From an uncultured Thermoplasmata archaeon (GTDB lineage: Archaea; Thermoplasmatota; DTKX01; GCA-020343715): a stretch of 64,000 nucleotides of DNA. The translations under genes were made by a program, and so were the position numbers. The stretch is taken from assembly GCA_965369625.1 (NCBI GenBank), contig CBDUQW010000002.1, positions 27,708 to 91,707 on the forward strand. Direction: 5' to 3'. The notes beneath the pieces were generated by a model. That model was given only the letters and a program-made list of their open reading frames with translations. It was not told where the DNA came from and did no database searches. Of the stretch, positions 8,537 to 49,873 are shown piece by piece (position 1 is the stretch's first letter; each line of letters begins with the position of its first letter).

Positions 8537-8563
8537 GTCCTCTCAACACTCCCTTGTGCACCT

Positions 8564-22800: not shown

Positions 22801-23046
22801 GGTGACGCTGTCGGCCACCAGGTGACCGCCATCGCCGATGATGAGCGAGCCCGTGGACTCCACCACCACATTGGACCACACCTCGTAGTGGTCCACGGAG
22901 CAGTTCGAGTCGATGACCATGGTTTCACCAGAACGGGTCCCCGGCGAGGCCGATACCAAGGAGGGATGGTCCACCTCCAGCATCCCCAGCGGACAGGCTA
23001 GGAGGAACATCGAGACAACAAGCGCAAACGAAACCCCCGCGCGCAT
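19888..23046 (-). CDS. Paralog A' of the giant Gly/Asp-repeat surface protein family (about 1052 aa from ATG 23046).
   Basis: The 6-frame ORF extends to 23115, but the signal peptide MRAGVSFALVVSMFLLACPLG begins at ATG 23044-23046. Same architecture as above. The Fn3-like segment (MGTYYWKVIAVYRGPPQVNGPE) groups it with the 26326..29478 paralog. A TATA-like attattat at about 23066-23078 sits in the 113-nt gap upstream. Confidence 0.8.
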   Translation of the reverse strand: MRAGVSFALVVSMFLLACPLGMLEVDHPSLVSASPGTRSGETMVIDSNCSVDHYEVWSNVVVESTGSLIIGDGGHLVADSVTLLDNAQMHLQGGVLEIEPRTYREFVGISGHCSWFEITKGSLVNIRGPDGGYDVPTSRGCSVGLNLTSTRTMMWMDSTISLTAGNGFSPPESLTDGDLDGYSFAGGDVTMSVTLVKDNDMLILSNCKIALTAGNGGRAPDGQSPIRGGDGDRGGIGGGYTRGGDVSGNVGSGGDVDGVLSSDHIMITDTTLNMTAGNGGDAGDGGSTKWTTDAGCGGGGYSGGDGASASNAQDPPGPGGSVSEGVGKGGDVSFNLVGGWVELEGARIEMLGGDGGDAGDGGSLTDGGGGAGGGGYSGGGGGNHGLMPGGDGGTVTGSVGRGGDVSATLTGADTMDIGTSRVLATAGNGGEGGDGGDAGALAGGGGGGYTGGGGGADGNSSGGTPGTDGGAGGALRGSVGSGGDASLLLESPRLVSTTSVFNVVGGSGGDEGGYGNARIDENQRPACGGGAGGHSSGGGGGAGHEGQTYGSGGSASDVLGKVGDGGNASLDIQSERLSLHRNTMIYVLWGDCGSTRSLNLEDPQGKARVRSTRDGTRWEYIPKSEVILWSPGDRLELHFVPSFEWMPVHRSTEDGDVVHYLFKMARDIPFTEIVTETTSVRPDLSIPDLQMGTYYWKVIAVYRGPPQVNGPEVRFSSFRFYNEPPEIDDYPTVTVIEDQPKSIYLGYYFHDRDTFIDDLVVEIDHPGVESITGLFVIFYYEWWEAPHRVHYSVSDGVSTTMGHVIVEVIDANEAPVIVSVGERLAPYQWTMAELEEEWLKVEADDPDDDPLTYTLTSDMIGVEITPAGVIVLHPDSYDLGSNRLKVIVDDGRGGTASVVVWIVVVRSNRPPEPPEVFSPADRSVFREGDLVVFSVRVSDPDIPSGAWLNVTFWSDTSGTLGQTSTQSFASLATDRLSPGDHRIVITVDDGTYEKSVTLHLTVDEAEESSPPPGQDHTWLYVLFAFIFIIVVTIGYLAGSSGVEDPYLEEVRR

Positions 23047-23159
23047 GGGAACTACTAAGGACGCATGCTGATAATAATCCCATCGATGCGTGACACCCGC
23101 GTCGTCCGAGGCCAAGGTCCAGGACCGACGAGGGAAAGGATGGGGTCATAATCCCAGGC

Positions 23160-26100
23160 TCACTCCGTAGGCCTTCCCCTCCGTGTTTGCCACCGTCCTG
23201 CACCGTAGGCCACCGCGAAGAGGGCGATGGTTGCCATCAGGTAGAGGGTGGGGTCCACCTCCTCGGTCTGGGGAAGGACCACGTTGGAGGGCTCTGGTGG
23301 CCCCTCCACCGTCAGGATGAACCAGGTGTTCGACGAGTAGCGGCCATCGGTGGCGACCACGCTGATCCTGTGGTTGCCAGGTTGTAGCCCGGAGTGGCTG
23401 AAGGATGCCACCCCGTCGGTCTCGATGGTCTTGAGGACCCCCGAGGAGTTGGAGATGAACGACACGTTGAGCCGCTGACCGAACCGGACGTCGTCATCCT
23501 CGACGGACACCACGAACCGGACCAGGGTCCCAAGGGGGACCGTGGTCCCGTTGTCCGGGCTGATGACCACCGGGACACGGGGCGGGTCGTTCACGTTCGT
23601 CACGACCACCGTGATCTCCATCTCGGCGGTCTGGCCCTCCTCGTCCGTCACCGTCAGGATGGCCTTGAAGGTGTCCACCTCCCCCTTGCCGGCCGCCACC
23701 TGGAGGGTCCCGTTCTCGTGGGCGATCACCCCCGGCCACCCGTAGGTGCTGTAGTTGAACTCGTCGCTGTCCACGTCGTGGACGAGGATGTCGTACCACT
23801 CCGAGGTCCCCTCCTCGATGGTGAGCCTTGTGGGAGGACGTATCCCCTCGAGCCCCCTGATGTAGGGCGGGTGCATGTGCCTGAGCGCCTGGACGGCGAA
23901 CTCCCCGTACACCCTGCTCAACCCGTCGGTCACCGAGAACCGCACCACGTGACCCGTGTCCTCCTCCCCGAAGTAGACGCTCAGGTTCAGATCGGATATC
24001 CTGAACAGGTGAGGGTCATGGCATTCGAGCACCAGACGGTCATCGTCGTCGTCGGGGTCGTCGATGTAGGGCGCGAGGTCGATCCTCGTCACCGTCTCGA
24101 TCTGGACCGTCATCAGCGGGATATCCCCGATCACGGGTGGCAGGTTCACGTACTCGAAGACGCGAGGTTCGGACCAGATCCCCCTGGGGTTCGGAGGGTT
24201 GGCGTAGCGTGGGGCCACCCTCCAGTAGAAGGTGAAGTTGGGCACCCAGATGGCATCGTAGCTCTCGGTCGGGACGATGACCGTCCACTCCGGGCTGGAG
24301 AAGTCCGGGTCGTCGTCGACCGTGAGCTCGTGCCCCACAACGGCCCCGCCGTCGGAAGAGGGATGGATGGGAGCCCATGTGAATTTCGGAAGGCTTGAGT
24401 CGATGGTGCCGTCCTCGGGGAGGATCGGAACTCCCCTGCTCCTCGGGATATATACCTCCGTCATACCGTTGGAGGTCAAACGGCCCTCTCCCCTCCCGGA
24501 CAGCGGTCCGAGCTCGGGGGAGACCAGGCACGGACCTTTCTTACCACGGGTCGCCCCAAAGAGGTTATCGAGGAGGACCGTGGCATTCTCAGGCTCGAGA
24601 AGGAGGGATGCGTCCCCGCCGTCCCCTACGGTCCCGAGGGCACCACCGCTCCTGCCGCCTGTGCCCCCGGATCCCGTCCGACCCGTGCTGCCGGCACCTC
24701 CCCCTCCCGAGTAGGAGCCACCACCTCCACCTGCCATCTCGTTCTCGATGTCACCGATCCACAGGCTCCTGCCATGGACCCCTCCCCGTCCCCCGTCACC
24801 TCCACCGACCGAGAAGCCCCATCCGTGGAGGCGTGCATCCTCCGCTGCAAGCTTGACCTTTGCGTCCCCGCCCATTCCCACCTCGTGGGTGACGGGTCCA
24901 CCGTCCCCCCCGTTCGTGCCACGGTCCAGGGTCAGGTTTCCTGCCATGCGGCCCGCTGCACCTCCGCCGCCGCCCGAGTAGCCGCCGCCGCCAGCGCCGC
25001 CCATCGGCAACGGAAGGGGAGCCCGGACCACGGACCCACCATCGCCAGCATCACCGCCGTTGCCACCAAGGGCCTGGACCAGTGAGGACCCGGTCCTCAG
25101 CTCGCCGGAGAGGCCGTACCTGATGGAGGCATCACCGCCATGTCCCACTGCGAAACCGACACGTCCGCCTTCCGCCCCATCGGCGGACGCGGAGCTTCCA
25201 CCGCCGCCACCGGAGTACCCGCCTCCTCCTCCACCTCCCTCGCCGGTGGAGCTGCCGCCGTCGCCCGCGTCGCCGCCTCTCCCACCATGGACCTGGATGT
25301 CCGTGCCCACCTGAGAGCAGTTCCCTCCCGACACGCGTAGGGTGGCGTCACCTCCAGCCCCGACGCGGCCCGTGACATCTCCGCCTGGCGTCGCCTGGAG
25401 GGCGCCAGCGTCCGCTCCGGGGCCGCCGGAGTAACCTCCACCTCCACCTCCCGCGGTGACGTCAGGACCCACCGAGGCCCCGTCACCCGCATCGCCGCCG
25501 TCACCACCGCTGATGTTGATGGATGTGCCGTCCAGCACGATAGAGCGAGCTGAAAGATGGACCCTGCTGGTTCCCCCGGTGGCGACATCACCCGTTACCT
25601 GACCGCCTTCGGTGAACCCACCTCCCCTGCCTCCGGTCGCGCTGTGGGCCGCCGTCCCGTTGGGGGCGTCCCCACCGTCACCTCCTTTGACGTCGATGCG
25701 GGAGTCGATGATCTTGAGGGAGGTTCCCGAGGAGCCCACGGTCAGGGAGATAGAGGCGGGGCCACCCGCCGATACCTCGCCTTCCAGGTCACCGTCGGTG
25801 TACGGCCTGCTGGGGGAATGACCAGCACCTCCCGTCAACCAGATGAGGGAGCCCTCTATCTGGATCCTCACGCTGGCGGTGAGATCGATGGAGGTGCTCT
25901 CTCCATGGCTGCCCTCGATAGTCCCGTTACCGGCCCCACCGATGGCCGAGATGATCGAGCCTGGCGACATCGTCAGCTCGCGACACCCCCCTGAAAGGCT
26001 CCTCGGACCGCGGTCGAAGGACCCGCCCAATATCAGGGACCCCCCCCTGATCTCCAGCACGCCCCTGAGGGAGACGCTTCCGGCGAAGAGGGTCGAGTTC

Positions 26101-26336
26101 GCCTCGATCACGAGCCTCCCGTCCCTCCCGACCTGGATCTGGTCCCAGGACTCCGAACCGGTCACCGTGTAGGTCTCGTCGACCACCAGCACATCCCCGG
26201 AACGATGGGTGCCCTCTCCGGCGACGTCCATCGTCGCCATCGGGAGCATGAGGGCCAGGACCACCAGGAGATTGACCAGGACCGGCACCGCCGAGGACCG
26301 CGGGTACGGGCCCCACGGACCGAGCCTAATCGGCAT
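23160..26336 (-). CDS. Paralog B of the giant Gly/Asp-repeat surface protein family (1058 aa). Most similar to 16763..19891.
   Basis: Signal peptide ...SAVPVLVNLLVVLALMLPMATM, Gly-rich repeats, FTWAPIHPSS...FYWRVAPRYANPPNPRGIWSEPRVF (compare P1 ELYWRVATLYSRPPKRGGPWSEPFKF), C-terminal TM LYLMATIALFAVAYGAG. The start overlaps the 3' end of the upstream gene by 11 nt. Confidence 0.8.
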   Translation of the reverse strand: MPIRLGPWGPYPRSSAVPVLVNLLVVLALMLPMATMDVAGEGTHRSGDVLVVDETYTVTGSESWDQIQVGRDGRLVIEANSTLFAGSVSLRGVLEIRGGSLILGGSFDRGPRSLSGGCRELTMSPGSIISAIGGAGNGTIEGSHGESTSIDLTASVRIQIEGSLIWLTGGAGHSPSRPYTDGDLEGEVSAGGPASISLTVGSSGTSLKIIDSRIDVKGGDGGDAPNGTAAHSATGGRGGGFTEGGQVTGDVATGGTSRVHLSARSIVLDGTSINISGGDGGDAGDGASVGPDVTAGGGGGGYSGGPGADAGALQATPGGDVTGRVGAGGDATLRVSGGNCSQVGTDIQVHGGRGGDAGDGGSSTGEGGGGGGGYSGGGGGSSASADGAEGGRVGFAVGHGGDASIRYGLSGELRTGSSLVQALGGNGGDAGDGGSVVRAPLPLPMGGAGGGGYSGGGGGAAGRMAGNLTLDRGTNGGDGGPVTHEVGMGGDAKVKLAAEDARLHGWGFSVGGGDGGRGGVHGRSLWIGDIENEMAGGGGGSYSGGGGAGSTGRTGSGGTGGRSGGALGTVGDGGDASLLLEPENATVLLDNLFGATRGKKGPCLVSPELGPLSGRGEGRLTSNGMTEVYIPRSRGVPILPEDGTIDSSLPKFTWAPIHPSSDGGAVVGHELTVDDDPDFSSPEWTVIVPTESYDAIWVPNFTFYWRVAPRYANPPNPRGIWSEPRVFEYVNLPPVIGDIPLMTVQIETVTRIDLAPYIDDPDDDDDRLVLECHDPHLFRISDLNLSVYFGEEDTGHVVRFSVTDGLSRVYGEFAVQALRHMHPPYIRGLEGIRPPTRLTIEEGTSEWYDILVHDVDSDEFNYSTYGWPGVIAHENGTLQVAAGKGEVDTFKAILTVTDEEGQTAEMEITVVVTNVNDPPRVPVVISPDNGTTVPLGTLVRFVVSVEDDDVRFGQRLNVSFISNSSGVLKTIETDGVASFSHSGLQPGNHRISVVATDGRYSSNTWFILTVEGPPEPSNVVLPQTEEVDPTLYLMATIALFAVAYGAGRWQTRRGRPTE

Positions 26337-29300
26337 GGTCCACCCCCTTCCTTCCCAGGTAGTAGCCGAGGAGCGGCATGGCGATGAGCAGGACGATGAT
26401 GTAGGGAGGGATCTCCTCGGCGACCCTCTCCTCCGGCTCGTGCTCGATCTCCCGCTCCTTGACCCTGATGTCGAGGTACGTCTCCTTCTTGTACGTCCCG
26501 TCCCACACGGTGATGGTTATCCTGTGGTGACCCACCGGGAGGTCGTTGATATGGAAACTGGCGATGTCCGTTGTCTTGATGGACATCAGCTGGCCTGTGA
26601 CGTTGGAGGTCCAGGTCACCCACAGCTCCTCGCCCCAGACCAGGTCCGGGTCGTTCACCTTCACGGTGAAGGGGATGCTGTCCAGCTCCTTGTGGACCGA
26701 CCTGTTCCAGGGGGAGTACACCTCTATGGGTCCGGGTGGGTCGCACACGTTGTTGACGAGGATGGTGATCTCGGCGACGGTGATGGCCCGTCTCTTGTCC
26801 TCCACCTCGAGGCGCGCGTGGAACTGGCCGAACCTCTCCTGCCTCGTCGTGACGCGGATGCTCCCGTTGGAGAACAGCCTGATGCCCCTCCAGCTGGAGT
26901 AGAGCGACATGGTCATGTCATCGCCATCGGGGTCGAGCAGTTCGATCTCGAACCACCTCACCGTCCCCTCGTCCACCTGGAGGGTGACGGGAGGGGGAAG
27001 GCCGCCGATGGACACCACCTCGGGGGGTTCGTTGACGTCCCACACGACGACGGGGAGCTTGAACAGCTTGCTGGTATAACCGTCGGAGAGGCTGAACTTG
27101 ACCCACCGGATGTCGCTGGGCTCGTCGAAATAGAGGGTCATGGTCAGGTTCTCGATGTTCCGAACGGCCGGGTCGCCGGTGGTCATCGTGAGGTTCTCGA
27201 GCTCGGTGTCGACGTCGGTGATGAAGGGAGCAAGGTCCACGACGGTCTCGGTCATCTCGTTGATGTAGAGGGGCTCGAACATGTGGAAGGTCGGGGGCGC
27301 GTTGTCGAACCCGAAGTTGTTGATGATGGATTCCGGCCCCAAGTGCCCCGGGGGCTCGGAGTAGATGGCCCTCACCCTGACGTAGTACGAACCAAAGGAC
27401 AGGCCCGTGACCTCCGCCCAAGGGTCCGTGGTCGTGATAGAGAATTCGACGCGGTCGAACGTCGGGTAGTCATCGACCTCGACCAAGTACGCGGAAATGG
27501 GACCATGGAGGGTGGAATCGTGTACGTCGACCCATCTGCATACGGGGAGCGAGTAGGTAAGCGTGCCATGCTGTGGCCATGTGATCAGCGGTCTGCTCAT
27601 CGGGATGTGGAGGACGGTGGACCCGTACTGTCCACTGCGGTGGGCCGAATCGCCGCACAGCGGGTCATAGGGCGGCTCAACACCATCCGACCCGGGTTCA
27701 CCAGGATGGGCGAAGAGGCTCGAGCTCCTGGTGATGGTGGGCAATGGGCTGTAGCAGATGACGCTGGCGTCACCACCATCGCCGATGTGACCCACCAGGT
27801 CACCACTGGAACCGGGGTTCCCGTATGCAGTGCCGGTGGTTTCCGTGCCCGCTCCCCCTCCGCCGGAGTATCCTGCGCCTCCACCGCCGCCCTTGGGCCC
27901 ATCGTCGGTACCCTCCTTGCCCTCGCCGGCGTCACCCTGGTCGCCTCCATGACCGGCGAACGCTGAAAGGTTGCAATCGAAGACCAGGGCGTAGTAAGAG
28001 ACGAGGACCACGGTCGCGTCACCTCCCGCCCCCAGGTTGCGCTTGACATCGCCCCCGTCACCACCATCGGACCCGGACCCATCGGTTCCCGCCGTACCCT
28101 GACGGCCTCCGCCTCCGCCACTATATCCGCCACCCCCGCCTCCTGCAGGACCCAGGGCATCGCCGCCATCGCCCGCGCTGCCGCCAGCGCCACCCGTCGA
28201 GGACAGGTAACTGGCGTTCAGGAGGACCGAGGACCACAGGGTGATGTTGATCAGGGCGTCGCCCCCGGAGCCAACGTCGCCGTGGACGTTCCCTCCGTCC
28301 CCGCCGGGGGACGAGATGGTGCCTCCACCGCCTCCAGTGTACCCTCCGCCGCCACCCCCTGCGTTGGAGGCGCTGGTCGCGCCGTCACCGGCATCGCCGC
28401 CCTTGCCTCCGGTGACATCGATGGTGGTCCTCGAGATGGTCGCGACCATGCCACGGACCAGGGCCGTTGCGTCGCCGCCGGTGCCCACCTCCCCCGACAC
28501 GTTGCCGCCGTTCCCGGCCGCGTTGGATGGGTGGTACCTCGTACCCCCATCGCCGCCGGAGTAGCCGCCGCCACCGCTTCCGTAGAAGTTCTGGGAGGGA
28601 TCGATGTCCCCGCCATCGCCCGCGTCCCCCGCCTTGCCGCCGACCAGCTCCACGAGGGTGTCCATCACGGTCAATGACCGGGCCCGCAGTACGAGTTCGG
28701 CGTCTCCGCCACTGCCCACGGTGCCCGACACGTCACCGCCCCTGGTGTAGCCCCCACCGCGACCTGCGGTCTCGGGAGCCATCGGCGGCTGCCCGTCCGG
28801 TGCCTTGCCGCCGTCGCCCCCCTTGACCCTGATGGAGGACGACTTGATCTCAAGGACCGGGTCGTAGGCGGTGACGTTGATGGACATCTCGGCGTCGCCT
28901 CCCGCGAAGGCGTCACCACCCAGGTCCCCGACGGTCATGGGATAGCCGGGCGAGAGGCCGTTCCCGCCGGTTATCTCGACCGTGGAACCCTTTACCCTCG
29001 CCGAGATGTACACGACCACGTCGATACGTGCCTTCCCGCCCCTGCTGTGGGGGACGTCATAGACGCCATCCGTCCCCGAGATGGTCACCCGGGACCCTCC
29101 GAGCAAGTCGAACCGGTTGCACTCGCCGAAGATCCCGACCTCGGAGGCGTAGGACCGGTCCGAGATGGCGAGGGTGGCCCTGCGCACCTCCAACGAGGAG
29201 GAGCCCTCGAGGTGGATAGAGCGGGTCTCCAGGACGGCACCGTTCATCACGAGGAGCCGCGCGCCGGAGCGGACGGTGACGTCCCTCCATACCTCGTGTC

Positions 29301-29478
29301 CCGTGACCTTGTAGGTGCCATCCACGTAGAGGGTGGCGTCGGGGTCGCCCCCGATCCCCTGGGCCTCGACGGCGACATCTTCGAGCAATATTTGTAACGA
29401 TGAGAGAAGGAACAGGAGAAGAATCAACACTACTGGAATGCAAACCCCCTTTCGCATCAAGGTTACTAGGCCCCACAT
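26326..29478 (-). CDS. Paralog A of the giant Gly/Asp-repeat surface protein family (1050 aa). First gene of the four-gene array.
   Basis: Signal peptide MWGLVTLMRKGVCIPVVLILLLFLLSSLQ (an alternative start is M8 at 29457). Gly-rich repeats (GGDAGDGG, GGGGYSGGDGG, VGSGGDA). SYYVRVRAIYSEPPGHLGPE is Fn3-like. C-terminal TM IIVLLIAMPLLGYYLG. Confidence 0.8.
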   Translation of the reverse strand: MWGLVTLMRKGVCIPVVLILLLFLLSSLQILLEDVAVEAQGIGGDPDATLYVDGTYKVTGHEVWRDVTVRSGARLLVMNGAVLETRSIHLEGSSSLEVRRATLAISDRSYASEVGIFGECNRFDLLGGSRVTISGTDGVYDVPHSRGGKARIDVVVYISARVKGSTVEITGGNGLSPGYPMTVGDLGGDAFAGGDAEMSINVTAYDPVLEIKSSSIRVKGGDGGKAPDGQPPMAPETAGRGGGYTRGGDVSGTVGSGGDAELVLRARSLTVMDTLVELVGGKAGDAGDGGDIDPSQNFYGSGGGGYSGGDGGTRYHPSNAAGNGGNVSGEVGTGGDATALVRGMVATISRTTIDVTGGKGGDAGDGATSASNAGGGGGGYTGGGGGTISSPGGDGGNVHGDVGSGGDALINITLWSSVLLNASYLSSTGGAGGSAGDGGDALGPAGGGGGGYSGGGGGRQGTAGTDGSGSDGGDGGDVKRNLGAGGDATVVLVSYYALVFDCNLSAFAGHGGDQGDAGEGKEGTDDGPKGGGGGAGYSGGGGAGTETTGTAYGNPGSSGDLVGHIGDGGDASVICYSPLPTITRSSSLFAHPGEPGSDGVEPPYDPLCGDSAHRSGQYGSTVLHIPMSRPLITWPQHGTLTYSLPVCRWVDVHDSTLHGPISAYLVEVDDYPTFDRVEFSITTTDPWAEVTGLSFGSYYVRVRAIYSEPPGHLGPESIINNFGFDNAPPTFHMFEPLYINEMTETVVDLAPFITDVDTELENLTMTTGDPAVRNIENLTMTLYFDEPSDIRWVKFSLSDGYTSKLFKLPVVVWDVNEPPEVVSIGGLPPPVTLQVDEGTVRWFEIELLDPDGDDMTMSLYSSWRGIRLFSNGSIRVTTRQERFGQFHARLEVEDKRRAITVAEITILVNNVCDPPGPIEVYSPWNRSVHKELDSIPFTVKVNDPDLVWGEELWVTWTSNVTGQLMSIKTTDIASFHINDLPVGHHRITITVWDGTYKKETYLDIRVKEREIEHEPEERVAEEIPPYIIVLLIAMPLLGYYLGRKGVDHAD

Positions 29479-29577: not shown

Positions 29578-30036
29578 ATGGTGAAGGTCCTCGTTCCCGT
29601 CCCCGAGAGGTGCTCCGGATGCGGCCTGTGCGAGATGGTGTGCACCATCACCCACGGTCACGGCCTCGCCCCGACGCGGTCGAACCTCCGTCTCGAGAAG
29701 CGCTGCATAGACCTGGACCTGGTGGTGGTGTGCTCCCACGGCGAGGGTTGCGAGCTGGAGTGCATCGAGGCCTGCCCCGCCGACGCCATCAGCGTGGGCA
29801 GGACGGGGGCCGTCCTCATCGACTACAACGATTGCATAGCCTGCGGCTCGTGCGGCCGGGCCTGTCCCTTCCACGTGATCTGGTCCGACGAGGGCGAGAA
29901 GGCATGGAAGTGCGACCTGTGCGGCGGCGACCCCGCCTGCGTCAGGTACTGCAAGCTGGAGGCCCTGGAGTACAGGGAGGCCACGTGGAAGGACTTCGAG
30001 CTCATCCGCTCCCACGTCGAGGAGGTGTGCGAGTGA
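29578..30036 (+). CDS. 2x[4Fe-4S] ferredoxin-domain protein (152 aa). Putative electron-transfer partner of AOR.
   Basis: Cys motifs CSGCGLCEMVC, CIEACPADAI, CIACGSCGRACP and CDLCGGDPACVRYC. Its stop overlaps the AOR start (GTGA). Confidence 0.8.
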   Translation: MVKVLVPVPERCSGCGLCEMVCTITHGHGLAPTRSNLRLEKRCIDLDLVVVCSHGEGCELECIEACPADAISVGRTGAVLIDYNDCIACGSCGRACPFHVIWSDEGEKAWKCDLCGGDPACVRYCKLEALEYREATWKDFELIRSHVEEVCE

Positions 30037-31877
30037 AGGGCTACGGCGGCACCGTCCTCCACGTGGACGTGACCACCGGGGAGGTGGAAAGGCGGCCCCT
30101 CGACCCCGAGGAGGCCCGGCTGTGGCTGGGAGGGGCCGGCCTGGGGGCCTACCTGGTCTACACCAACGTCCCCCGGGGCGCCGACCCCCTGGGGCCCGAC
30201 AACGCCCTGGTGTTCACCCCCGGCCTGGTCAACGGGGTACCCCTCATCACCCCGGGCAAGTGCACCTTCTCCGCCCGCAGCCCCCTCACGGGCACCATCG
30301 GCGACGCCACCATGGGCGGCCGCCTCGGCGTGGCGACCCGGCACGCCGGCTACGACGCCATCGTCGTCAAGGGCCGGTCGGTCAAGCCCGTGACCATCGT
30401 GGTGGACGACGACGAGGTCACCCTCCGGCCCAGCTCGGACCTGTGGGGCCTGGACACCCGGCAGGCGTCCGAGGACCTGCGGCGGGAGCTGGGCCACGAG
30501 TTCGCGGTGGCCACCATCGGCGTGGGCGGCGAGAACCTGGTCAAGTACGCCTGCATCGACTGCGACGACCGGCAGTCGGGGCGCGGCGGCATCGGTGCCG
30601 TGATGGGCTCCAAGCTGGTCAAGGCCATCGCCGTCCGGGGCACCAAGCGCCTCCGCATCGCCCACGAGGACGAGCTGCCCGGCCTGCTGGAGAGCAACCA
30701 CGAGAAGCTGGCGGGGGACCCAGGATGGGACGACACGCGCAAGCACGGCACCGGCGGCTTCACCAACTGGGTCAACGAGGAGCGGGGCACCTTCCCCACC
30801 CGCAACTGGCAGGAGTCGGTGTACGAGGACCGGGACCGCATCGTCCCCCAGCACTGGGCGCCCAAGTACGGCGTGCGCAGCAAGGCATGCCACGGCTGCA
30901 TGAAGCCCTGCGGCAAGCTGTTGCGCATCGAGGATGGCCCCTACGAGGGCACCGTGGTGGACGGCGTGGAGTACGAGACCATCTACTCCCTGGGGGGCGT
31001 GATCTGCAACCCCGACCCCGAGCTGCTGGCCCACCTGAACGAGCTCTGCGACGTGTACGGACTGGACACCATCTCCGCCGGCGTCGTCATCGCCTGGGCC
31101 ATGGAGGCGACGGAGCGGGACCTCCTCACGAAGTTCGACCTGGGAGGCCTGGACGTGGGCTTCCACAACCCCGCCTGCGCCCCCGAGCTGCTCCGTCGCA
31201 TCGCCCACCGCGAGGGCATCGGCGACCTCCTCGCCGAGGGCGTCGCCAAGGCATCGGCCATCGTGGGCCAGGGCTCGGAGGAGTTCGCCATCCACGTCAA
31301 GGGGCTGGAGCCCCCCGCCTACGACGTGCGGGGCATGAAGACCCTGGCCCTGGGCTTCGCCGTCAGCTCCCGGGGCGCCTGCCACCTGAAGTCCGGCGGT
31401 TACCTGGTCGACCTGATGGGCAAGTTCGGACCCTTCAAGGACGTGGACCGGTTCTCCGCCGAGGGCCGGGGCGAGATGGTGATGTACCTCGAGGACCTGT
31501 TCGCCTACTACGACTGCATCGGCGTGTGCAAGTTCTCCCGCCGCATGTACGGGAACGAGGACCTGGCCGACGCCGCCCGCCTGGTGACGGGACGCCAGCT
31601 GACGGAGGAGGAGATGTTCCGCATCGGCGAGAGGGTGACCAACCTGCGCCGGCTGTTCAACTGCCGCGAGGGCTTCACCCGGGCGGACGACAGGCTGCCC
31701 CACCGCGTCATGAACGAGCCCGTCAAGGATGGCCCCTCCAAGGGGCACATGGTGACCGAGGAGGAGCTGCAGACGATGCTGGACGACTACTACGCCCGGC
31801 GGGGCTGGGACGGGGACGGTCGACCCACCGAGGAGAAGCTGGCCCAGCTGGGCATAGCTGACATGGCGTACTGGTGA
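30033..31877 (+). CDS. aor: Tungsten-containing aldehyde:ferredoxin oxidoreductase (AOR family), 614 aa.
   Basis: N-terminus (M)KGYGGTVLHVDVTTGEVERRPL... is the classic AOR start. Conserved AOR segments (DTISAGVVIAWAME, GCMKPCGKL, GACHLKSGGYLVD, ELQTMLDDYYARRGWD). GTG start at 30033 within gaGTGa, overlapping the ferredoxin stop. Confidence 0.9.
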   Translation: MKGYGGTVLHVDVTTGEVERRPLDPEEARLWLGGAGLGAYLVYTNVPRGADPLGPDNALVFTPGLVNGVPLITPGKCTFSARSPLTGTIGDATMGGRLGVATRHAGYDAIVVKGRSVKPVTIVVDDDEVTLRPSSDLWGLDTRQASEDLRRELGHEFAVATIGVGGENLVKYACIDCDDRQSGRGGIGAVMGSKLVKAIAVRGTKRLRIAHEDELPGLLESNHEKLAGDPGWDDTRKHGTGGFTNWVNEERGTFPTRNWQESVYEDRDRIVPQHWAPKYGVRSKACHGCMKPCGKLLRIEDGPYEGTVVDGVEYETIYSLGGVICNPDPELLAHLNELCDVYGLDTISAGVVIAWAMEATERDLLTKFDLGGLDVGFHNPACAPELLRRIAHREGIGDLLAEGVAKASAIVGQGSEEFAIHVKGLEPPAYDVRGMKTLALGFAVSSRGACHLKSGGYLVDLMGKFGPFKDVDRFSAEGRGEMVMYLEDLFAYYDCIGVCKFSRRMYGNEDLADAARLVTGRQLTEEEMFRIGERVTNLRRLFNCREGFTRADDRLPHRVMNEPVKDGPSKGHMVTEEELQTMLDDYYARRGWDGDGRPTEEKLAQLGIADMAYW

Positions 31878-31898: not shown

Positions 31899-34800
31899 TC
31901 AGTCCACGGCGGTGGGCACTGTGGAGGGCGGCGCGTCGGTGGCGTACACCCGGCTCTTCCTGCGGGTCCGGTCCACCTTGATGAGTTTGCCCTCCTCCAT
32001 GATCTTGATGTGGTAGTTGATGACCTGGGAGCTGGCGCCGATGCGCTTGGCGATGTCCTTCTGGGAGAGGCCCTGGTTGTTCTTGACGATGGTCAGGATG
32101 ACCTCCTGGAAGGAGCTGATGTTGTGCTGGGTGCGGGGCAGCTTCATGTCCGCCGGGTAGAACCGCTTGTAGATGCCGTCCATCCGGGACCGGACGTAGC
32201 CCTCCCGCTCGAGGACGCGGAGGTGGTACGACAGCGCGCCGTTGGTCACGTCCAGCTGGTCCTTGATGGCGTTGTAGTGCTCCCCCGGATTCGCGATTAT
32301 GTAACCATGGATCTTACCACGCAGGTAGTGGTCCAGGACCCGGTCCTTCTTGATCTTGGTGTAAAGGGGGAGGAAGATGACGGTGAGGAAGGCGTACCTG
32401 CCCACCTCGGTCCCGCCCACCAGGCCGAGGATGGAGACGGTGATCACGGCGGCCACCGAGACATGCACCACGGCGGGCGGGATGGCCTGGTCGGGGGCGC
32501 CGTCCACGTACACGTGGCGCTTGACCAGGTTGTTCGCCTCGTTCCGCTCGCGGATCTCATCCGCTGGGTCCACCTGCAGCACCAGCGTCCTTCTGCCCTG
32601 GTTCGGGACCATGTACAGGACGACCTCCAGCTGTCCCATGCGGGGCACGATGGACAGGGTGTCCCGGTCCATGACGGTGGAGCCGTCCTTGAGGACCACG
32701 GTGACGTCCTCGGCGTCGGCCATGCCCAGGTTGAAGACGGTGGCGCGCACGGTCAAGGGCGTCCCCTCGTGGGGCTCGTAGGGGAGGATGGTGAAATCGA
32801 CGACGGCCAGGTCGGGGAACCGCAATCTCACGTAGAGGATCTGTCGGAGGATCTGGCCTCCCTGCTCGCTCCACAGGACCATGTCGATAGCGTGGTCGCC
32901 GTCGGCGCCGGCGGGCACCTTGAGGGCGAGCCGGGCGGACCGGACGCCGCCCATCTCCATCGGGAACGTGACCGTGGGCTCACCATCGGCGTCCTGGAAG
33001 GAGTAGTCCCAGCCGTAGGGCAGTCCCTCCAGGGCGAGGCGCGCCGTCCCTGCGGAGTTGCCCACGCTGTGCATCTCGAAGGGGAAGGTCACCGTCGCGG
33101 GTGGCGTCAGCGTCCTGGTGGTCTCCTCGATCACCAGGTCCACGTCGAACACCTGGGGCACGTGGACGTCGCACCACGAGCTGTAGTAGCCGATGGAGCC
33201 GCGCACCTGCACGGCCACGGGAACCCTTCCAGGCATGGTGTCCCTGGGGGCCGTTATCGTCACCTCGAGGGTGCGGCTCTCCCCCGGACCGAGGATGATG
33301 GGGCCGGTGACACCGGCGGCCTTCGCCCTCCATCCCTCGGGAAGGCCCAGGAACGAGATGGACAACCGCTCGAAGGAGTTGCCATTGTTGTTCAGCACGA
33401 GGTCTGTCACCGCGGTGCCGTCCATGAGGGGCACGGACATGGGCATGAACAGCCCCTCGTACTCCACCTTCAACCCCACGGTGGCGGTGAAGTACTCCAC
33501 GGCCAGGGTGGGTCCCTCCTCGCTGGCGGCCACGACCATGATCCTCGCGGGGGTCTGGTAGGGCACCCCCTCGGGGGCCGTCACCCATACCAGCACGGGG
33601 GCCTGGGAGCCCGGGGTCAGCACGAGGGAGGGCTCGCTCACCTCGACGGTCCAGCCCTCCTTGTTGGGCTGGGCGTACATCCTCACCGTCACCGGCTCGT
33701 TGCCGGTGTTCCTGACCATCGCCTCGAGGCTGGTGGGAGCGGTGGGCGATATCTCCAGCTTGCCCTCGCCCAGGTCCAGGGCTACGCCGGCGTGCGGGAC
33801 CACGACGGCGGGCAGGCTCGTCCCAGCGCCCTCATCGCCGTCCTCGGTGTGGCCGATGACCTTGATGACGGCCTCTGTCCCGGCGGCGGCGCCCTCGGGG
33901 GCCGTCACCTTCACCTCGACGTCGACGGTCTCGCCGGCGGGGAGGTTGACGGGGGCGGGCGCCTCGGCGGACCAGCCGCGGGGCACCTCCACCTCGACGG
34001 TCACCGTCTCGTCGGTGTCGGACCAGCTCTCCAGGGTCAGCGTCACGGACACGGGGTCGCCCGGCAGAGCCGACAGGGGCTCGTCAGGGCCCCTGACGAT
34101 GAAGGGATGGTGCTCGGGCACCTGGACCGGGATGTCGATGCTGGAGACCGCCTCGGGCCAGCCCTCGGGGTGGGCCGTGACGGTCACGGTGTCCCGGGCG
34201 CCCGTGGTGGCGGTCATGGAGGCGATGATGCGTACGGTGACGAGGGCGGAATCCCCGCCCTCCATCTCGATGAGGTCGTCCCCGAGTATCTCGGCGCCGA
34301 AGGGGGTCTCCAGGCCATCGGCGATGCCCAGCTGGACCCTGTGGGGATACCCCACCTTGCTCTCGACCAGCACCGTGGTCTCCAAGGTGGTGCCCGCCCG
34401 GAGCAGCACGGGCTCCAGGGGGTCGATGGACGCGGGCCTTCGCATCATGGTGTCGGTGGCCCTGTCGATGATCCAGAAGCGAACGGAAAGGTCGGGATCC
34501 CAAGAGGAAACCGCGTGGGCAGTCCTAGAGTGATCCGCGTGGGCCATATAGGTCTGACCCCTTCCATCGGTGGTGGTGGAAGCTGACTGGATAGGAGGAA
34601 TATACTCGTGTATTACGATGAAAGGGAAGGTGCCCTCGAGCTTGCCCTCGGGTGTGGCATAGATCGGAGCGTGTACGAATTTGAAGGTGCCCACAGCCAG
34701 GTAACCACCGTTTAGCACAGTGGCCAGGTCGGATGCCCTCACGGAGTTCAGTATGCCGCCCGAGCCCTCGTAGTCGGTGATGTTAACCACCTCTCCGATA

Positions 34801-35672
34801 CCGTCCTCACCCAGATCCCGCTGCCAGACGTTCGATGCGGATGAGGGTCCGTCTACCCACACGGCGGTGGGGACACCGTTCGGGACGGGCAGGATGACGG
34901 GCAGCGTGCCCTCGTCGGCTCCATGGACCAGATGGATGTCGAAGCCGTCCTCGCCGTCGGGGACGGCCCAGTGGTCGCCGTCCTCCCCGATGAAGGTCAC
35001 GTGGGGCTGGCCGTCCAGGTCGAGGGCCACGTCGACCGCGGACGGGCCGTAGTCGCCGAGGATGCCGTCCACCAGCTCGGAGGTGAGGATGTTGCCGTCC
35101 CTGCTGAGGGAGACCAGCCGGACGTGGGTGCCGACCCGGTCCTTCTCCTCGACCCAGGTCATCCAGGCCGCGGCGCCGTCCTCGGAGACGGTGGCGGCTA
35201 TGGCCGGGGCCGAGGCGGTGACGTCGGTGGCACTGAACCTGTGATTGTTGGAAAGGACGTTGCCGTAGTCGTCGTAGGTCTTGTGCCAGACGGCGCCCTG
35301 GCCGTCCTCCCACACCACGTGGAGGACGCCCTTGGCGTCCATGGCGACCACGTCGACCTGGCCGTCGATGGGCTCGGGAGCGACCCGGGGCAGGTTGGAC
35401 AGCTCTACGCCGATCTTGGAGTCGGCGGTGAGGTTGAGCCGGGAGAGGTAGAGCTTGCCGTCCTCGTCCTCCCAGGTGGCCAGGGGGACGTCGTCGGGAC
35501 CGATGAACAGGGTGACGTTGGACTCGTCGCCTGGACCGTAGGTGACGTGCCATCCCATCTTGGGCTGCTCGCCATCGGCAGCGCTGGTGGACAGCGCCGC
35601 CAGTGGGGCGATGATGAAGAGGGCGACGATGACGACGGCCCACGACCGGTTCCCGGGCGGAGACAACTTCAT
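31899..35672 (-). CDS. Membrane-tethered transcriptional regulator (about 1258 aa from ATG 35672). Signal peptide, beta-propeller-like WxDxxG repeats, multiple DUF11/CARDB-like beta-sandwich domains, a TM segment, then two cytoplasmic winged-helix HTH domains (ArsR/HTH_20-like and MarR-like).
   Basis: MKLSPPGNRSWAVVIVALFIIAPLAALS is a signal peptide. W-containing repeats (WEDEDGKLYL, VVWEDGQGAVW, AAWMTWVEEKDRVG). Repeated ...VTVT..PEGW... domains. TM AIPPAVVHVSVAAVITVSILGLVGG. wHTH 1 is GEHYNAIKDQLDVTNGALSYHLRVLEREGYV. wHTH 2 is QGLSQKDIAKRIGASSQVINYHIKIMEEGKLIKV. Confidence 0.75.
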   Translation of the reverse strand: MKLSPPGNRSWAVVIVALFIIAPLAALSTSAADGEQPKMGWHVTYGPGDESNVTLFIGPDDVPLATWEDEDGKLYLSRLNLTADSKIGVELSNLPRVAPEPIDGQVDVVAMDAKGVLHVVWEDGQGAVWHKTYDDYGNVLSNNHRFSATDVTASAPAIAATVSEDGAAAWMTWVEEKDRVGTHVRLVSLSRDGNILTSELVDGILGDYGPSAVDVALDLDGQPHVTFIGEDGDHWAVPDGEDGFDIHLVHGADEGTLPVILPVPNGVPTAVWVDGPSSASNVWQRDLGEDGIGEVVNITDYEGSGGILNSVRASDLATVLNGGYLAVGTFKFVHAPIYATPEGKLEGTFPFIVIHEYIPPIQSASTTTDGRGQTYMAHADHSRTAHAVSSWDPDLSVRFWIIDRATDTMMRRPASIDPLEPVLLRAGTTLETTVLVESKVGYPHRVQLGIADGLETPFGAEILGDDLIEMEGGDSALVTVRIIASMTATTGARDTVTVTAHPEGWPEAVSSIDIPVQVPEHHPFIVRGPDEPLSALPGDPVSVTLTLESWSDTDETVTVEVEVPRGWSAEAPAPVNLPAGETVDVEVKVTAPEGAAAGTEAVIKVIGHTEDGDEGAGTSLPAVVVPHAGVALDLGEGKLEISPTAPTSLEAMVRNTGNEPVTVRMYAQPNKEGWTVEVSEPSLVLTPGSQAPVLVWVTAPEGVPYQTPARIMVVAASEEGPTLAVEYFTATVGLKVEYEGLFMPMSVPLMDGTAVTDLVLNNNGNSFERLSISFLGLPEGWRAKAAGVTGPIILGPGESRTLEVTITAPRDTMPGRVPVAVQVRGSIGYYSSWCDVHVPQVFDVDLVIEETTRTLTPPATVTFPFEMHSVGNSAGTARLALEGLPYGWDYSFQDADGEPTVTFPMEMGGVRSARLALKVPAGADGDHAIDMVLWSEQGGQILRQILYVRLRFPDLAVVDFTILPYEPHEGTPLTVRATVFNLGMADAEDVTVVLKDGSTVMDRDTLSIVPRMGQLEVVLYMVPNQGRRTLVLQVDPADEIRERNEANNLVKRHVYVDGAPDQAIPPAVVHVSVAAVITVSILGLVGGTEVGRYAFLTVIFLPLYTKIKKDRVLDHYLRGKIHGYIIANPGEHYNAIKDQLDVTNGALSYHLRVLEREGYVRSRMDGIYKRFYPADMKLPRTQHNISSFQEVILTIVKNNQGLSQKDIAKRIGASSQVINYHIKIMEEGKLIKVDRTRRKSRVYATDAPPSTVPTAVD

Positions 35673-35862
35673 GGAGACCCGACCACCTGGTTCAACCTCA
35701 CTCCTTGCATCCATTCCTGCCTGGCCCATATATACAGTCTTGTACGGTTCTTTATCGTTCCCATACGGGGTATGGGGTCCTGGCACTCGCTCACGTGGTG
35801 CCATGTGCGACCGTACGCCTTAAGGGTTGCGACGTGGTTTTCCTCGGGGCGAACCCAGTTAT

Positions 35863-35874
35863 TACCTTTTATAA
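35863..35874 (+). promoter_or_regulatory. TATA box (cttttataaagg) about 57 nt upstream of the ATG of the tandem-Roadblock membrane protein gene.
   Basis: TTTATAA in the divergent intergenic region 35673-35930. Confidence 0.4.
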
Positions 35875-35930
35875 AGGGGACGCAAACCCTTTATGGCCGC
35901 TGGGTCCTTCCGTACCTAGGTGGTCAGCGG

Positions 35931-37571
35931 ATGGCGAGGAGGTCGCGTCCTATCGGGTCTCAGAAGAAGATGACCAAGAAGAAGGACTGGACGTACAAAC
36001 TGGAGACGGGGAAGATATTCCTCTACATCCTCCAGATCATCCTGGTCATCCTCTACATCATCCGGGCGACCATCGACGACATGGAGGAGATCAAGGACGG
36101 CTACTTCAACCTCCTCGACGTCCTGGTCCCCCTGAGCCTCCTCATCGTCGTCATCGGCGTGGAGGAGGTGCTGATCTCGACCATGGTGGGCGCCTTCCGG
36201 AAGGACCTCTCCGACAGGTACCGGTACCTGGAGGCCGCGAAGCGGGGCGCCATCACCACCGCCGTCGTGGCCTTCATCATCGCCATCATAATGCTGGCGC
36301 CCCCGGTCCACGACATGATAGAGGACGCCTCCGGGCTCAACGAGACCGAGACCTCCCCCGAGCTTTTCAAGAACTTCAGGTCCAAGGACCCGCTGAACCT
36401 TACGGGGTTGGACAGGATGTTCGTGACCACCGAGGACAACGTCCTGTTCAACGTCACGCTGTACCGCGGGGACAAGCTGACCGACGGGTTGGTGGTGGAC
36501 AACGCCAGTCGCGTGCGGGAGTGGGAGTACAACTTCGACGTGGACGAGGTGGATGACTACATCATCCTCGCCACCCCCGTCTCCGCCTCGGGTGATATCA
36601 CCTGGGTCCTGGAGATGGAGACCAAGGTCCGGCAGGAGTTGATCTACGGCGTCGCCGTGCCCTTCCTCATCCTGGGCATCGTCAACCTCTGCTTCTACCC
36701 CCTGGCCCGCTTGTGGTCCCGGTCCACCGAGGACGAGTACGTCGAGACCCAGACCAAGAGGCTGCGCGCCCGGTTCAAGATAGAGGAGGCCTTCCTCATC
36801 TACGAGGACGGCAGGCTCATCGCCCACAACTCCCGTCGCCTCAAGCCTGAGAGGGACAAGGACATCATGACGGGCATGCTCACCGCGGTCCAGAGCTTCG
36901 TCACCGACACCCTCATCGACGAGGAGAGGGGGACCCTGGACCAGCTGAGGTACGGCTCCCTCAGCATCCTGGTGGAGGGCAAGGGCAGGGTGAACCTGGC
37001 CACCATCATCTCCGGCGACGAGTCGCCGGCGCTGCGCCAGGGCATGACGAACATCGTGTCCTACATAAGCGGCCAGTACCGCCAGTACCTGGAGGACTGG
37101 GACGGCGACGTGGACCACTTCAAGGACGTGAAGCGCTACATCGGCCACCTGGTCTCCACCGGCCAGGAGAAGGCCGTGCTGCCCGACGAGCTGTACCTGT
37201 TCCACCGTGACGGCCGGCTGGTGGCCCACCAGAACTCGCGCCTCGAGCCCTCCATCGACGACGGCCTGCTCCAGGACTGGGTGGACCAGATAGTGGGCGC
37301 GGTGCGCCGGTCGATGGCCGACCCCTCCAAGTCGATGCCCGCCCAGCTCAACGTGATGGGCTACGACGTCTACCTGGAGTACACCAACTACCTGAACATG
37401 GCCTTCATGACCACGCGCAAGGACGTCGAGGCGCGCAGGGACCTGATGTCCGACGTGCTCCACGACATCGACGCCCAGTTCCACGACACCCTCTACCAGT
37501 GGGACGGTGCGACCCAGGAGCTGGCGGACCTCAAGCTGATGCTGGAGTCGGTGTTGACCGAGAGGGTATAG
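35931..37571 (+). CDS. Membrane protein (546 aa) with about three N-terminal TM helices and two tandem Roadblock/LC7 (MglB-like) domains in the cytoplasmic C-terminal half.
   Basis: The ATG at 35931 is in frame with the long 6-frame ORF 34923..37571, whose upstream part is antisense noise. TM segments IFLYILQIILVILYII, LLDVLVPLSLLIVVIGV and AITTAVVAFIIAIIML. Roadblock repeat 1 is EEAFLIYEDGRLIAHNSRRL...MLTAVQSFVTDTL...GSLSILVEGKGRVNLATII. Repeat 2 is LYLFHRDGRLVAHQNSRLEP...WVDQIVGAVRRSM...YDVYLEYTNYLNMAFM. Confidence 0.75.
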   Translation: MARRSRPIGSQKKMTKKKDWTYKLETGKIFLYILQIILVILYIIRATIDDMEEIKDGYFNLLDVLVPLSLLIVVIGVEEVLISTMVGAFRKDLSDRYRYLEAAKRGAITTAVVAFIIAIIMLAPPVHDMIEDASGLNETETSPELFKNFRSKDPLNLTGLDRMFVTTEDNVLFNVTLYRGDKLTDGLVVDNASRVREWEYNFDVDEVDDYIILATPVSASGDITWVLEMETKVRQELIYGVAVPFLILGIVNLCFYPLARLWSRSTEDEYVETQTKRLRARFKIEEAFLIYEDGRLIAHNSRRLKPERDKDIMTGMLTAVQSFVTDTLIDEERGTLDQLRYGSLSILVEGKGRVNLATIISGDESPALRQGMTNIVSYISGQYRQYLEDWDGDVDHFKDVKRYIGHLVSTGQEKAVLPDELYLFHRDGRLVAHQNSRLEPSIDDGLLQDWVDQIVGAVRRSMADPSKSMPAQLNVMGYDVYLEYTNYLNMAFMTTRKDVEARRDLMSDVLHDIDAQFHDTLYQWDGATQELADLKLMLESVLTERV

Positions 37572-37583: not shown

Positions 37584-38144
37584 CTACCCCTGGTTGGGGT
37601 ACCTCTTCCTCTGGTCCTGCTCGAGCATGAGCTCGGCGAGGCGGTAGAAGGCGATCTCCACGTTGTTGCCTGTCTTGGCCGAGGTCTTGTAGTAGACCGT
37701 GTTGTACTTGGCGGCCAGGGCCTCCATGCCGTGCTCGTCCATGGTCCAGTATCCCTCCAGGTCCGTCTTGTTGTACACCAGGAGCACCGTCTTGTCGCCC
37801 ACGGCAGACCTGAAGGATTTGACCCACATCTCGAAGTTCTCGATGGTGGAGAGGCGGGTGATGTCCGCGATCACGATGGCACCGTCGGCGCCCCTGTAGT
37901 ACATCTCGTGAAGGCGGGTGGACTCCCTGGAGCCGATGAGGTCCCAGATCATCATGTCCATCTTGACGGTGTACACCATGGTGGGTACCTCGATCTTCTT
38001 CTTGGAGACGCGGGCGCCGATGGTGGACACGTACTTATCGTCGAAGGTGTTGAGCACGAACCTGCAGATGAGGCTGGTCTTTCCCACTGCCGGGTCTCCC
38101 AGCAGGACGATCTTCTTCTTGACCCTCTTGGTTGGCTCGTCCAT
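37584..38144 (-). CDS. Ras-like small GTPase (archaeal MglA/Arf/Rab-like), 186 aa.
   Basis: G1 GDPAVGKTS, G3 WDLIGSRE (DxxG), G4 NKTD. RBS GGAGTGA 7 nt upstream. Only 12 nt downstream of the nadX stop, suggesting co-transcription. Confidence 0.85.
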   Translation of the reverse strand: MDEPTKRVKKKIVLLGDPAVGKTSLICRFVLNTFDDKYVSTIGARVSKKKIEVPTMVYTVKMDMMIWDLIGSRESTRLHEMYYRGADGAIVIADITRLSTIENFEMWVKSFRSAVGDKTVLLVYNKTDLEGYWTMDEHGMEALAAKYNTVYYKTSAKTGNNVEIAFYRLAELMLEQDQRKRYPNQG

Positions 38145-49772: not shown

Positions 49773-49873
49773 GCTGGCCCGATTGGCGCCCCCCCGAGAT
49801 ATACCTTTGGGTGATGTTGACCGGCCCTGGCGTTATCGAAAGGCCTATAGAGGGACCCGCCTCTCGGGGTGGC

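Follow-up and report, generated by a model that had tools for sequence, protein, structure and literature searches.

The 64,000-nt stretch of DNA analyzed here (the window; contig CBDUQW010000002.1 of an uncultured Thermoplasmata archaeon, positions 27,708–91,707) contains one complete minus-strand open reading frame (ORF) of 1257 aa at window positions 31899–35672, with the stop codon at 31899–31901, which we studied as the gene of a putative membrane-tethered transcription regulator. All coordinates of its features given below refer to the minus strand. A sequence-only reading of this locus had described a secreted ectodomain joined through a transmembrane (TM) helix to two cytoplasmic winged helix-turn-helix (wHTH) domains, and the same architecture emerged from Pfam searches, hydropathy analysis, AlphaFold2 modeling and comparison of 18 orthologues. 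The limits of the coding sequence followed from the ORF list, from translation combined with hydropathy, and from the colinearity of these orthologues. In the ORF list the frame is open upstream as far as 35804. We placed the start at the ATG at 35672 because a Shine-Dalgarno-like AGGTGG (35683–35688), also kept in the orthologous locus L002, lies 10 nt before it, a TATA box lies ~60 nt upstream and the resulting N-terminus is a signal peptide; given the conserved position of the TATA box, transcription probably begins at or downstream of the earlier in-frame ATGs. The GC content of the gene at third and second codon positions (0.90 and 0.45, respectively) was typical of real genes in the window. 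An exact-sequence look-up returned no record identical to the 1257-aa protein.

Domain architecture and membrane topology

Only two 19-residue windows of the protein exceeded a Kyte-Doolittle hydropathy of 1.4, at residues 6–34 and 1062–1091, corresponding to the signal peptide and to a single TM segment. The signal peptide (residues 1–31; 35580–35672) reads MKLSPPGNRSWAVVIVALFIIAPLAALSTSA followed by ADG or, in its fuller layout, MKLSPPGNRS-WAVVIVALFIIAPLAAL-STSA followed by ADG. It consists of a K/R n-region, a 17-residue hydrophobic core with the hydropathy peak (2.39) at residues 12–31, and a cleavage-like site between STSA and A, where the precursor is predicted to be cut. The TM helix PAVVHVSVAAVITVSILGLVGG (residues 1066–1087; 32412–32477) reached a hydropathy of 2.39 at residues 1067–1085.

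The signal peptide is followed by a 7-bladed beta-propeller head (residues ~40–400; 34473–35555) with W-x-D/E-x-x-G blade repeats. A confident model of this region superimposed on solved 7-bladed propellers, in agreement with the beta-propeller-like N-terminal region reported earlier. In the AlphaFold2 model the propeller was followed by a beta-sandwich, and Pfam, an internal profile scan and AlphaFold2 together outlined a stalk of about six immunoglobulin (Ig)-like beta-sandwich domains (residues ~401–1055; 32508–34472). A profile built from one such unit located repeats at residues ~418–503, 520–625, 672–731, 777–826 and 950–1054, the spacing of which indicated the number of about six. Pfam matches in the stalk included NPCBM_assoc/NEW3 (75.9 bits; best stretch at residues 537–602, coordinates 33867–34064) and a membrane-proximal CARDB domain (residues 953–1050; 32523–32816; 45.5 bits), the latter within the 950–1054 unit, which is the last beta-sandwich before the membrane; FixG_C was also matched in the 1257-aa protein. 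Of the DUF11/CARDB-like beta-sandwiches proposed from the sequence alone, the CARDB part thus held, together with NPCBM_assoc and the other Ig-like domains, but DUF11 itself had no match in the Pfam scan of the protein. FG-GAP was likewise unmatched in the window protein (FG-GAP_3 occurs in 8 of the 59 full-length family members surveyed below).

Past the TM helix, the chain continues as GG-TEVGR. From TEVGR on, together with a stretch of 12 apolar residues, YAFLTVIFLPLY, and TKIKKDR, it forms a conserved juxtamembrane block (residues 1088–1110; 32343–32411) that was delineated by alignments and that in the family takes the form TE-x-GK, 12 apolar residues and PLYTK-hKK-x-E-VLD. An AlphaFold2 model of the C-terminal 217 residues, made with 30 homologues (predicted local distance difference test score (pLDDT) of 82), contained the TM helix at residues 1066–1087 (fragment residues 26–47), a second helix at 1089–1106 (fragment residues 49–66), and, after these, a pair of canonical winged helices modeled at pLDDT >90. 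The apolar stretch of the block is too short to cross the membrane and is not amphipathic, and the second helix is probably interfacial or re-entrant on the cytoplasmic side.

The ectodomain is acidic (148 D/E versus 62 K/R; isoelectric point (pI) 4.4) and the tail is basic (pI 9.8). Similar values were found in 122 family representatives, which carry the TM segment at the equivalent place and have a median pI of 4.4 for ectodomains and 9.5 for tails; their net charge was −0.68 in the 15 residues preceding the TM segment and +2.93 between it and the first winged helix, and the C-terminal side of the TM segment was the more positive one in 108 of the 122. By the positive-inside rule, the KIKKDR after the short apolar stretch also argues for a cytoplasmic tail. 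The signal peptide, the single TM helix, the charge bias and the pI asymmetry across the 122 representatives thus predict an N-out/C-in, type-I single-pass topology. The same indicators, hydropathy, charge and pI, predict that the HTH domains lie inside the cell, as had been proposed, and not outside it.

A tandem winged-helix tail

The first winged-helix domain (wH1; residues 1111–1180; 32133–32342) is ArsR-like and belongs to the Pfam family PF24266 (HTH_HVO_0163_N), which matched residues 1118–1176 at 45.7 bits against a cutoff of 31 and covered profile positions 4–62 of 70; AlphaFold2 modeled it with pLDDT >90. Its recognition helix is TNGALSYHLRVLERE and its wing DGIYKRFYP. The second domain (wH2; residues 1189–1245; 31938–32108) is HTH_24/MarR/HTH_20-like by Pfam and by profile matches to the PDB, with the recognition helix SSQVINYHIKIMEE and the wing RTRRKSR, so that both wings are basic (YKRFYP in wH1, RTRRKSR in wH2). 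Pfam scores for wH2 were 53.4 bits for HTH_24 (cutoff 21.9), 34.8 for MarR_2 (cutoff 27) and 30.2 for MarR (cutoff 24.6), with HTH_20 also matched. The HTH_24, HTH_20, MarR and MarR_2 matches fell at residues 1189–1237, those of MarR and MarR_2 at 1189–1234. Compared with the PDB, a profile of the module matched 5duk (a 77-aa putative DNA-binding protein), 3bpv, MarR, SlyA, AdcR, ArsR, SmtB and PH1932, and, by sequence, its closest relatives of known structure are DNA-binding regulators. According to Foldseek, the fold is a tandem winged helix of the kind seen in SurR/PF0095 and MarR. These results bear out the earlier assignment of the C-terminus as an ArsR/HTH_20-like domain followed by a MarR-like one.

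Several features set the tail apart from the named classes of regulators. The MarR dimerization helices were not found, only profile positions 5–48 of 59 being aligned in wH2, and in the AlphaFold2 model wH2 is a bare wHTH (helices H147–158, H164–171 and H175–187 and two strands) with a 10-residue linker on one side and the C-terminus on the other. The NCBIfam model HTH_metalloreg (ArsR/SmtB) scored 32.5 bits, below its cutoff of 55, and the OmpR/PhoB-type domain Trans_reg_C had no Pfam match in the 1257-aa protein.

A family of Thermoplasmatota proteins sharing the C-terminal module

A full HMMER scan with the last 196 residues against 1.84 billion cluster representatives recovered 608 representatives at E≤1e-30 and 2381 at E≤1e-10. 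The module consisting of the TM segment, the juxtamembrane block and the tandem wHTH was C-terminal in all 150 best hits, the total length of which ranged from 177 to 1568 aa. In the dominant layout, an N-terminal hydrophobic segment, common to most full-length members, is followed by a variable region and by a single TM segment ~40–60 residues before the ANPG motif of wH1, with no hydrophobic stretch afterwards. A Pfam census found PF24266 and HTH_24 in every one of 59 full-length members. Across the family, the ectodomains are variable, adhesin-like and up to 1400 aa or more in length; those of the 59 members are built from NPCBM_assoc, CARDB, He_PIG, PKD, Big_9, FG-GAP, beta-helix and PQQ propeller parts. 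The ectodomain of the window protein had been called exceptionally large, which the family does not bear out: about 30 of the 150 best representatives are longer than 1000 aa, with a maximum of 1568 aa, and the ectodomain ORF of one distant relative encodes at least 2502 aa.

Conservation within the family is highest in the wH1 domain, with a column mean of 0.68 as compared to 0.51 for wH2. Conservation reached a mean of 0.74 in the wH1 recognition helix (NGxLAYHLxxLE), and the first positions of the wH2 recognition helix were variable among members.

All 66 genomic loci that we recovered came from Thermoplasmatota metagenome-assembled genomes (MAGs; Thermoplasmata and Methanomassiliicoccales), and the profile-search matches were MAG and metagenome proteins only, with no cultured host among them. 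Several copies per genome were found with a single narrow search pattern (4 in CP070751, 3 in CP070739 and 4 in the VGTL01 MAG). The 64-kb window holds no paralogue of either the module or the ectodomain. Existing database labels for family members are 'winged helix-turn-helix transcriptional regulator', 'uncharacterized membrane protein/DNA-binding MarR family transcriptional regulator' and 'parallel beta-helix repeat protein'. The window gene is thus an ordinary member of a large, pipeline-annotated and experimentally unstudied family of putative membrane-tethered regulators.

Two apparent stand-alone soluble forms of the module were rejected as truncations, P0001 lying at a contig edge and P0030 overlapping, or being frameshifted with, an upstream ectodomain ORF. 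The distant relative mentioned above (locus L071, positions 1–4651) is arranged as two ORFs in different frames with a 56-nt overlap, the Ig-rich ectodomain ORF and a 216-aa ORF for the TM segment, juxtamembrane block and tandem wHTH, which could be due to a frameshift or a sequencing error, or to a gene that is genuinely split.

Orthologues and selection

The whole architecture is common to 18 full-length colinear orthologues of 1204–1261 aa with ectodomain identities of 39–78%. In matched genome pairs, the wHTH pair was 86–95% identical, as compared to 67–84% for the neighboring aldehyde:ferredoxin oxidoreductase (AOR), 69–85% for the neighboring GTPase, 39–69% for the propeller and 39–65% for the Ig stalk; wH1 alone was 90–94% identical among the orthologues. 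The ratio of nonsynonymous to synonymous substitution rates (dN/dS) relative to L002 was 0.09 for the wHTH pair and 0.35–0.43 for the ectodomain. These ratios point to unusually tight purifying selection on the tail and to an ectodomain that appears functional yet fast-evolving, as expected for an exposed surface domain.

Promoter elements

A TATA box (TATATAT; 35728–35734) lies ~60 nt upstream of the ATG and is present as TATATA(A/T) in five orthologous promoters, its assignment following the archaeal promoter consensus. About 4–5 nt upstream of it, phylogenetic footprinting of the same five promoters revealed the element TAAAGAACCGTACAA (35740–35754), a candidate B recognition element and operator. 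Its core AAAAACCGTACAA, in which the window sequence has G for A at one position, is located ~75 nt ahead of the ATG in the window and in three other loci (L002, L067 and L069), is also found upstream of the gene in L003, and was kept despite diverged flanks. We regard the AAAAACCGTACAA element as a candidate autoregulatory site, and autoregulation of the gene as a reasonable hypothesis.

The sequence-only reading had suggested looking for a conserved site in this divergent promoter region; one was found in the element beside the TATA box, but a second candidate, a palindrome, was conserved only in L002. This perfect inverted repeat, ATAAAGGG-N8-CCCTTTAT (35871–35894, plus strand), lies ~40 nt upstream of the ATG of the divergent gene and occurs nowhere else in the window, shuffled sequences giving an expectation of 0 matches. 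We rejected it as an operator: it is shared with L002, the closest relative, but not kept in L003, and it overlaps a TATA-like sequence.

Neighboring genes

Genes for AOR and a 4Fe-4S protein (29578–31877, plus strand) are convergent with the regulator gene, and the stop codons are 21 nt apart. Convergent AOR and ferredoxin genes downstream of the regulator were found in the window, in L002, L003, L067, L068 and L069, and in the distant L071 (42% identity). Upstream, the order of a divergent multi-TM protein, a Ras-like GTPase and an aspartate dehydrogenase is kept in the window, L002, L003 and L069. The divergent neighbor (35931–37571, plus strand) is a 546-aa multi-TM protein with two C-terminal repeats of ~110 aa, EEAFLIYEDGRLIAHNSRRL and DELYLFHRDGRLVAHQNSRL, and without a significant Pfam match. 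The small GTPase of the Ras family adjoining it (37584–38144, minus strand; Pfam Ras, E 4e-36) may form with it a membrane-sensor/small-GTPase pair. As guilt-by-association partners of the family, an M20 peptidase, an Lhr-like helicase and a zinc-ribbon/TPR membrane protein were rejected: they are recurrent, but belong to other orthologous subgroups.

Cell-surface genes are unusually abundant in the 64-kb window. Four tandem paralogues at 16763–29478 (minus strand) encode Gly-rich surface proteins of 1050–1120 aa with GGDGG-type repeats; three of the four have a Big_9 Ig domain near the C-terminus, the 26326–29478 protein ends in a C-terminal TM anchor, and a homologue stands at the equivalent relative position in L002. 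In a 1745-aa protein (188–5425, plus strand), a CARDB domain at the N-terminus is combined with a double zinc ribbon (residues 1388–1434); this is perhaps one more large surface protein, in which a small module in the cytoplasm binds nucleic acid or protein. At 6008–11860 (minus strand), two DUF7289 proteins, one with Laminin_G_3, adjoin a 1098-aa protein that begins like an archaeal type IV pilin, in what looks like a pilus- or adhesion-related cluster. More large surface proteins, with Glucodextran_B, Big_13, PKD and fn3 domains, are encoded at 46527–49832 and 62315–64000 (both minus strand). Elsewhere, ribosomal protein S3Ae (eS1) is apparently fused to a C-terminal helix-hairpin-helix domain, HHH_5, in the window (14204–15235, plus strand) and in L070 (4423–5409).

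Possible mechanism and alternative explanations

Taken together, these observations make it probable, in our judgment, that the window protein is a transmembrane transcription regulator (TTR) of a new type-I tandem-wHTH variant, which binds DNA from the membrane and in which engagement of the ectodomain alters clustering or juxtamembrane geometry. Such a regulator would expose a lectin- or integrin-like 7-bladed propeller on a stalk of about six Ig domains, linked by the TM and juxtamembrane helices to the wHTH pair in the cytoplasm. It would belong to a large Thermoplasmatota family of TTRs, in which the C-terminal output module is nearly invariant and the adhesin-like ectodomains joined to it are of many kinds. 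Being part of a single chain, the two wHTH domains could act as an intramolecular pseudo-dimer, replacing the dimer normally needed by ArsR/MarR proteins, and bind DNA while the protein stays embedded in the membrane. Of the two, wH1 would supply a function common to the family, and wH2, with its varying recognition helix, may add or tune target specificity. Engagement of the ectodomain by a glycan, a surface or a partner would change clustering or juxtamembrane geometry and thereby promoter occupancy, and a likely target would be the gene's own promoter, at the AAAAACCGTACAA element beside the TATA box.

A number of points weigh against this interpretation. The wH1 recognition helix is nearly invariant across members with unrelated ectodomains; therefore, a common partner or non-specific DNA binding fits equally well as gene-specific regulation. 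Besides DNA-binding regulators, Foldseek also matched tandem winged-helix proteins that bind protein or RNA, namely ScpB, ESCRT-II, RPC34 and SelB. That the ectodomain is a sensor, as the sequence-only reading had it, is an assumption, because the 25 Pfam families with matches in most of the 59 members include no classical ligand-sensor domain (Cache, PAS or CHASE-type); the family ectodomains (Ig, PKD, CARDB, FG-GAP, beta-helix and PQQ propellers) resemble adhesins and other surface proteins rather than ligand sensors. About six Ig domains and one TM helix offer no obvious physical route for a signal, and the predicted topology is founded on hydropathy and charge rules. No neighboring gene was recurrent family-wide over the 66 loci, and the promoter 15-mer had no second copy in the 64-kb window with up to 3 mismatches allowed, so that no local regulon can be proposed. 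Finally, we infer DNA binding, targets and signal control for the window protein, and equally DNA binding, targets and signaling for the other members of the family, on which our literature search found no paper.

A first alternative is proteolytic release, in which the protein would be a latent transcription factor: engagement or shedding of the ectodomain would lead to regulated intramembrane proteolysis, and the soluble tandem wHTH would then act on DNA, following the logic of the Notch, SREBP and RsgI-type systems and not that of ToxR. The TM helix ends in a helix-destabilizing G-L-V-G-G followed by the invariant TE-x-GK/PLYTK block, which is kept independently of the ectodomain and might serve as a site that a protease recognizes or cuts. 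It is hard to picture how a stalk so long and rigid would signal across the membrane by a change of conformation, and the last Ig domain is only ~10 residues from the membrane. Genes for a LonB protease and an S8 subtilase lie 5–10 kb away, and an S8 peptidase gene is also found near the L069 orthologue. However, neither the genes of the window nor the recurrent neighbors of family members were seen to include one for S2P or a rhomboid protease, and the seemingly soluble stand-alone forms P0001 and P0030 turned out to be truncations. We consider release by proteolysis an unlikely explanation.

In a second alternative, the wHTH pair would be a constitutive anchor. The protein would then be primarily a surface adhesin or envelope component that the wHTH pair ties either to the nucleoid, by binding DNA non-specifically, or to a partner protein in the cytoplasm common to the family, rather than a signal-responsive, gene-specific regulator. 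The joining of one tail to many unrelated adhesin ectodomains (CARDB, PKD, He_PIG, Big_9, FG-GAP and beta-helix) resembles a sorting or anchoring cassette, and the near invariance of wH1, including its recognition helix, and the structural matches to the protein-binding ScpB and ESCRT-II fit this picture, as does the abundance of large surface proteins and pilin-like genes in the window. The tail is also more conserved than AOR, a metabolic enzyme, which suggests constraint from a fixed partner. On the other hand, the tail sequence resembles bona fide DNA-binding regulators above the Pfam gathering thresholds, both wings are basic with a tail pI of 9.8, the wH2 recognition helix shows the kind of variation that a determinant of specificity should have, and a conserved promoter element stands upstream of the gene, all of which make a purely anchoring role improbable. 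Lastly, a chimeric or misassembled ORF, or wHTH domains that are truly extracellular, is effectively refuted: the 65% GC of the genome, at which long spurious ORFs are common, the open frame and a second short hydrophobic stretch after the TM helix would speak for such an artefact, but the codon-position GC is that of genuine window genes, the 18 orthologues are colinear with synteny kept in five loci, dN/dS is below 1 in all regions, and the second stretch, also found family-wide, has only 12–13 apolar residues between charged ones, followed by KIKKDR.

We also offer a wider and more doubtful proposal. The family may represent a large, lineage-specific system of Thermoplasmatota signaling, in which integrin- or adhesin-like receptors with propellers, FG-GAP, PKD, CARDB or beta-helices are fused via a conserved TM/juxtamembrane switch to a near-invariant tandem wHTH. 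Contact with a surface, a glycan or another cell would be conveyed directly to transcription, either from the membrane or by Notch-like release, and many receptors would converge on a shared DNA element. If the module works as proposed, hundreds of Thermoplasmatota surface proteins would be direct surface-to-DNA transducers with a topology opposite to that of ToxR/CadC and a tandem wHTH instead of a dimer. Little is understood of how archaea transduce signals, and the Thermoplasmatota in question have not been cultured; experimental handles are provided by the near-invariant cytoplasmic module (a soluble tail of ~150 aa), the juxtamembrane block and the promoter element (a 13-nt candidate operator). 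The family as a whole, already labeled 'wHTH transcriptional regulator' by annotation pipelines, is of more interest than the single window gene.

Comparison with known systems

For the ectodomain, integrin alpha and the propeller lectins PLL and BP39L provide an analogy only, with ~10% sequence identity to the window propeller. Membership among the propeller lectins was rejected on this identity and on the score of the NCBIfam model beta_propeller_lectin (16.8 bits against a cutoff of 200). For the overall plan, RsgI-type anti-sigma factors, Notch and SREBP likewise combine a large extracellular module, a single TM segment and a cytoplasmic domain that controls transcription; they are not homologous to the window protein and resemble it in logic only, and neither a protease partner nor a cleavage site of the kind used by these systems was identified for it.

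The relatives of the tail are regulators by name and description. The wH1 domain is a member of PF24266 by its above-cutoff score, and HVO_0163 has been called an ArsR-type regulator that rises under hypochlorite stress in the one paper found that names it (PMC10294847). The soluble archaeal tandem-wHTH proteins SurR/PF0095 and PH1932 have the tandem winged-helix fold in common with the window tail, and PH1932 and ArsR were among its profile matches. No membrane tethering was seen in these PF24266, SurR and PH1932 relatives, the topology of which was not checked, unlike that predicted for the window protein.

The classical examples of TTRs are ToxR, TcpP and CadC. ToxR and CadC carry an N-terminal OmpR-type wHTH in an N-in, type II arrangement, whereas the window protein has a signal peptide, a C-terminal tandem of ArsR/MarR-type wHTH domains and a predicted type I arrangement. 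Their periplasmic sensor is small, in contrast to the ~1030-aa adhesin-like propeller and Ig stalk described here, and they have no counterpart of the conserved hydrophobic juxtamembrane block. ArnR and ArnR1 of Sulfolobus acidocaldarius, membrane-bound activators of the archaellum, are the only experimentally studied archaeal precedent that we found (PMC6396743), and they are, as proposed for the window protein, archaeal, membrane-anchored HTH one-component regulators. The papers' descriptions give ArnR an N-terminal HTH and C-terminal TM helices and no large ectodomain, unlike the window protein, and membership was rejected by the NCBIfam model trans_reg_ArnR (11.4 bits against a cutoff of 400). 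Thus, the window protein is not a member of the ToxR/CadC group, ArnR, the ArsR metalloregulators or the full MarR family, a defining feature that we tested being absent in each case.

The TTR class as a whole, which in function is the nearest one known to the predicted regulator, is defined by a predicted DNA-binding domain together with at least one predicted TM segment, and has been reported in most archaeal genomes at ~4 per genome (Demey et al. 2023; PMC10269533). Both elements are present in the window protein, the former as HTH_24, PF24266 and MarR_2 and the latter as its single TM helix. In TTRs the DNA-binding domain also faces the cytoplasm and regulates transcription from the membrane; for the window protein, such an orientation is predicted from the signal peptide, the positive-inside rule and the pI asymmetry, and regulation from the membrane is proposed. 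As predicted for the window protein, TTRs unite an extracytoplasmic domain, a single TM segment and a cytoplasmic wHTH in one chain and are one-component systems by design.

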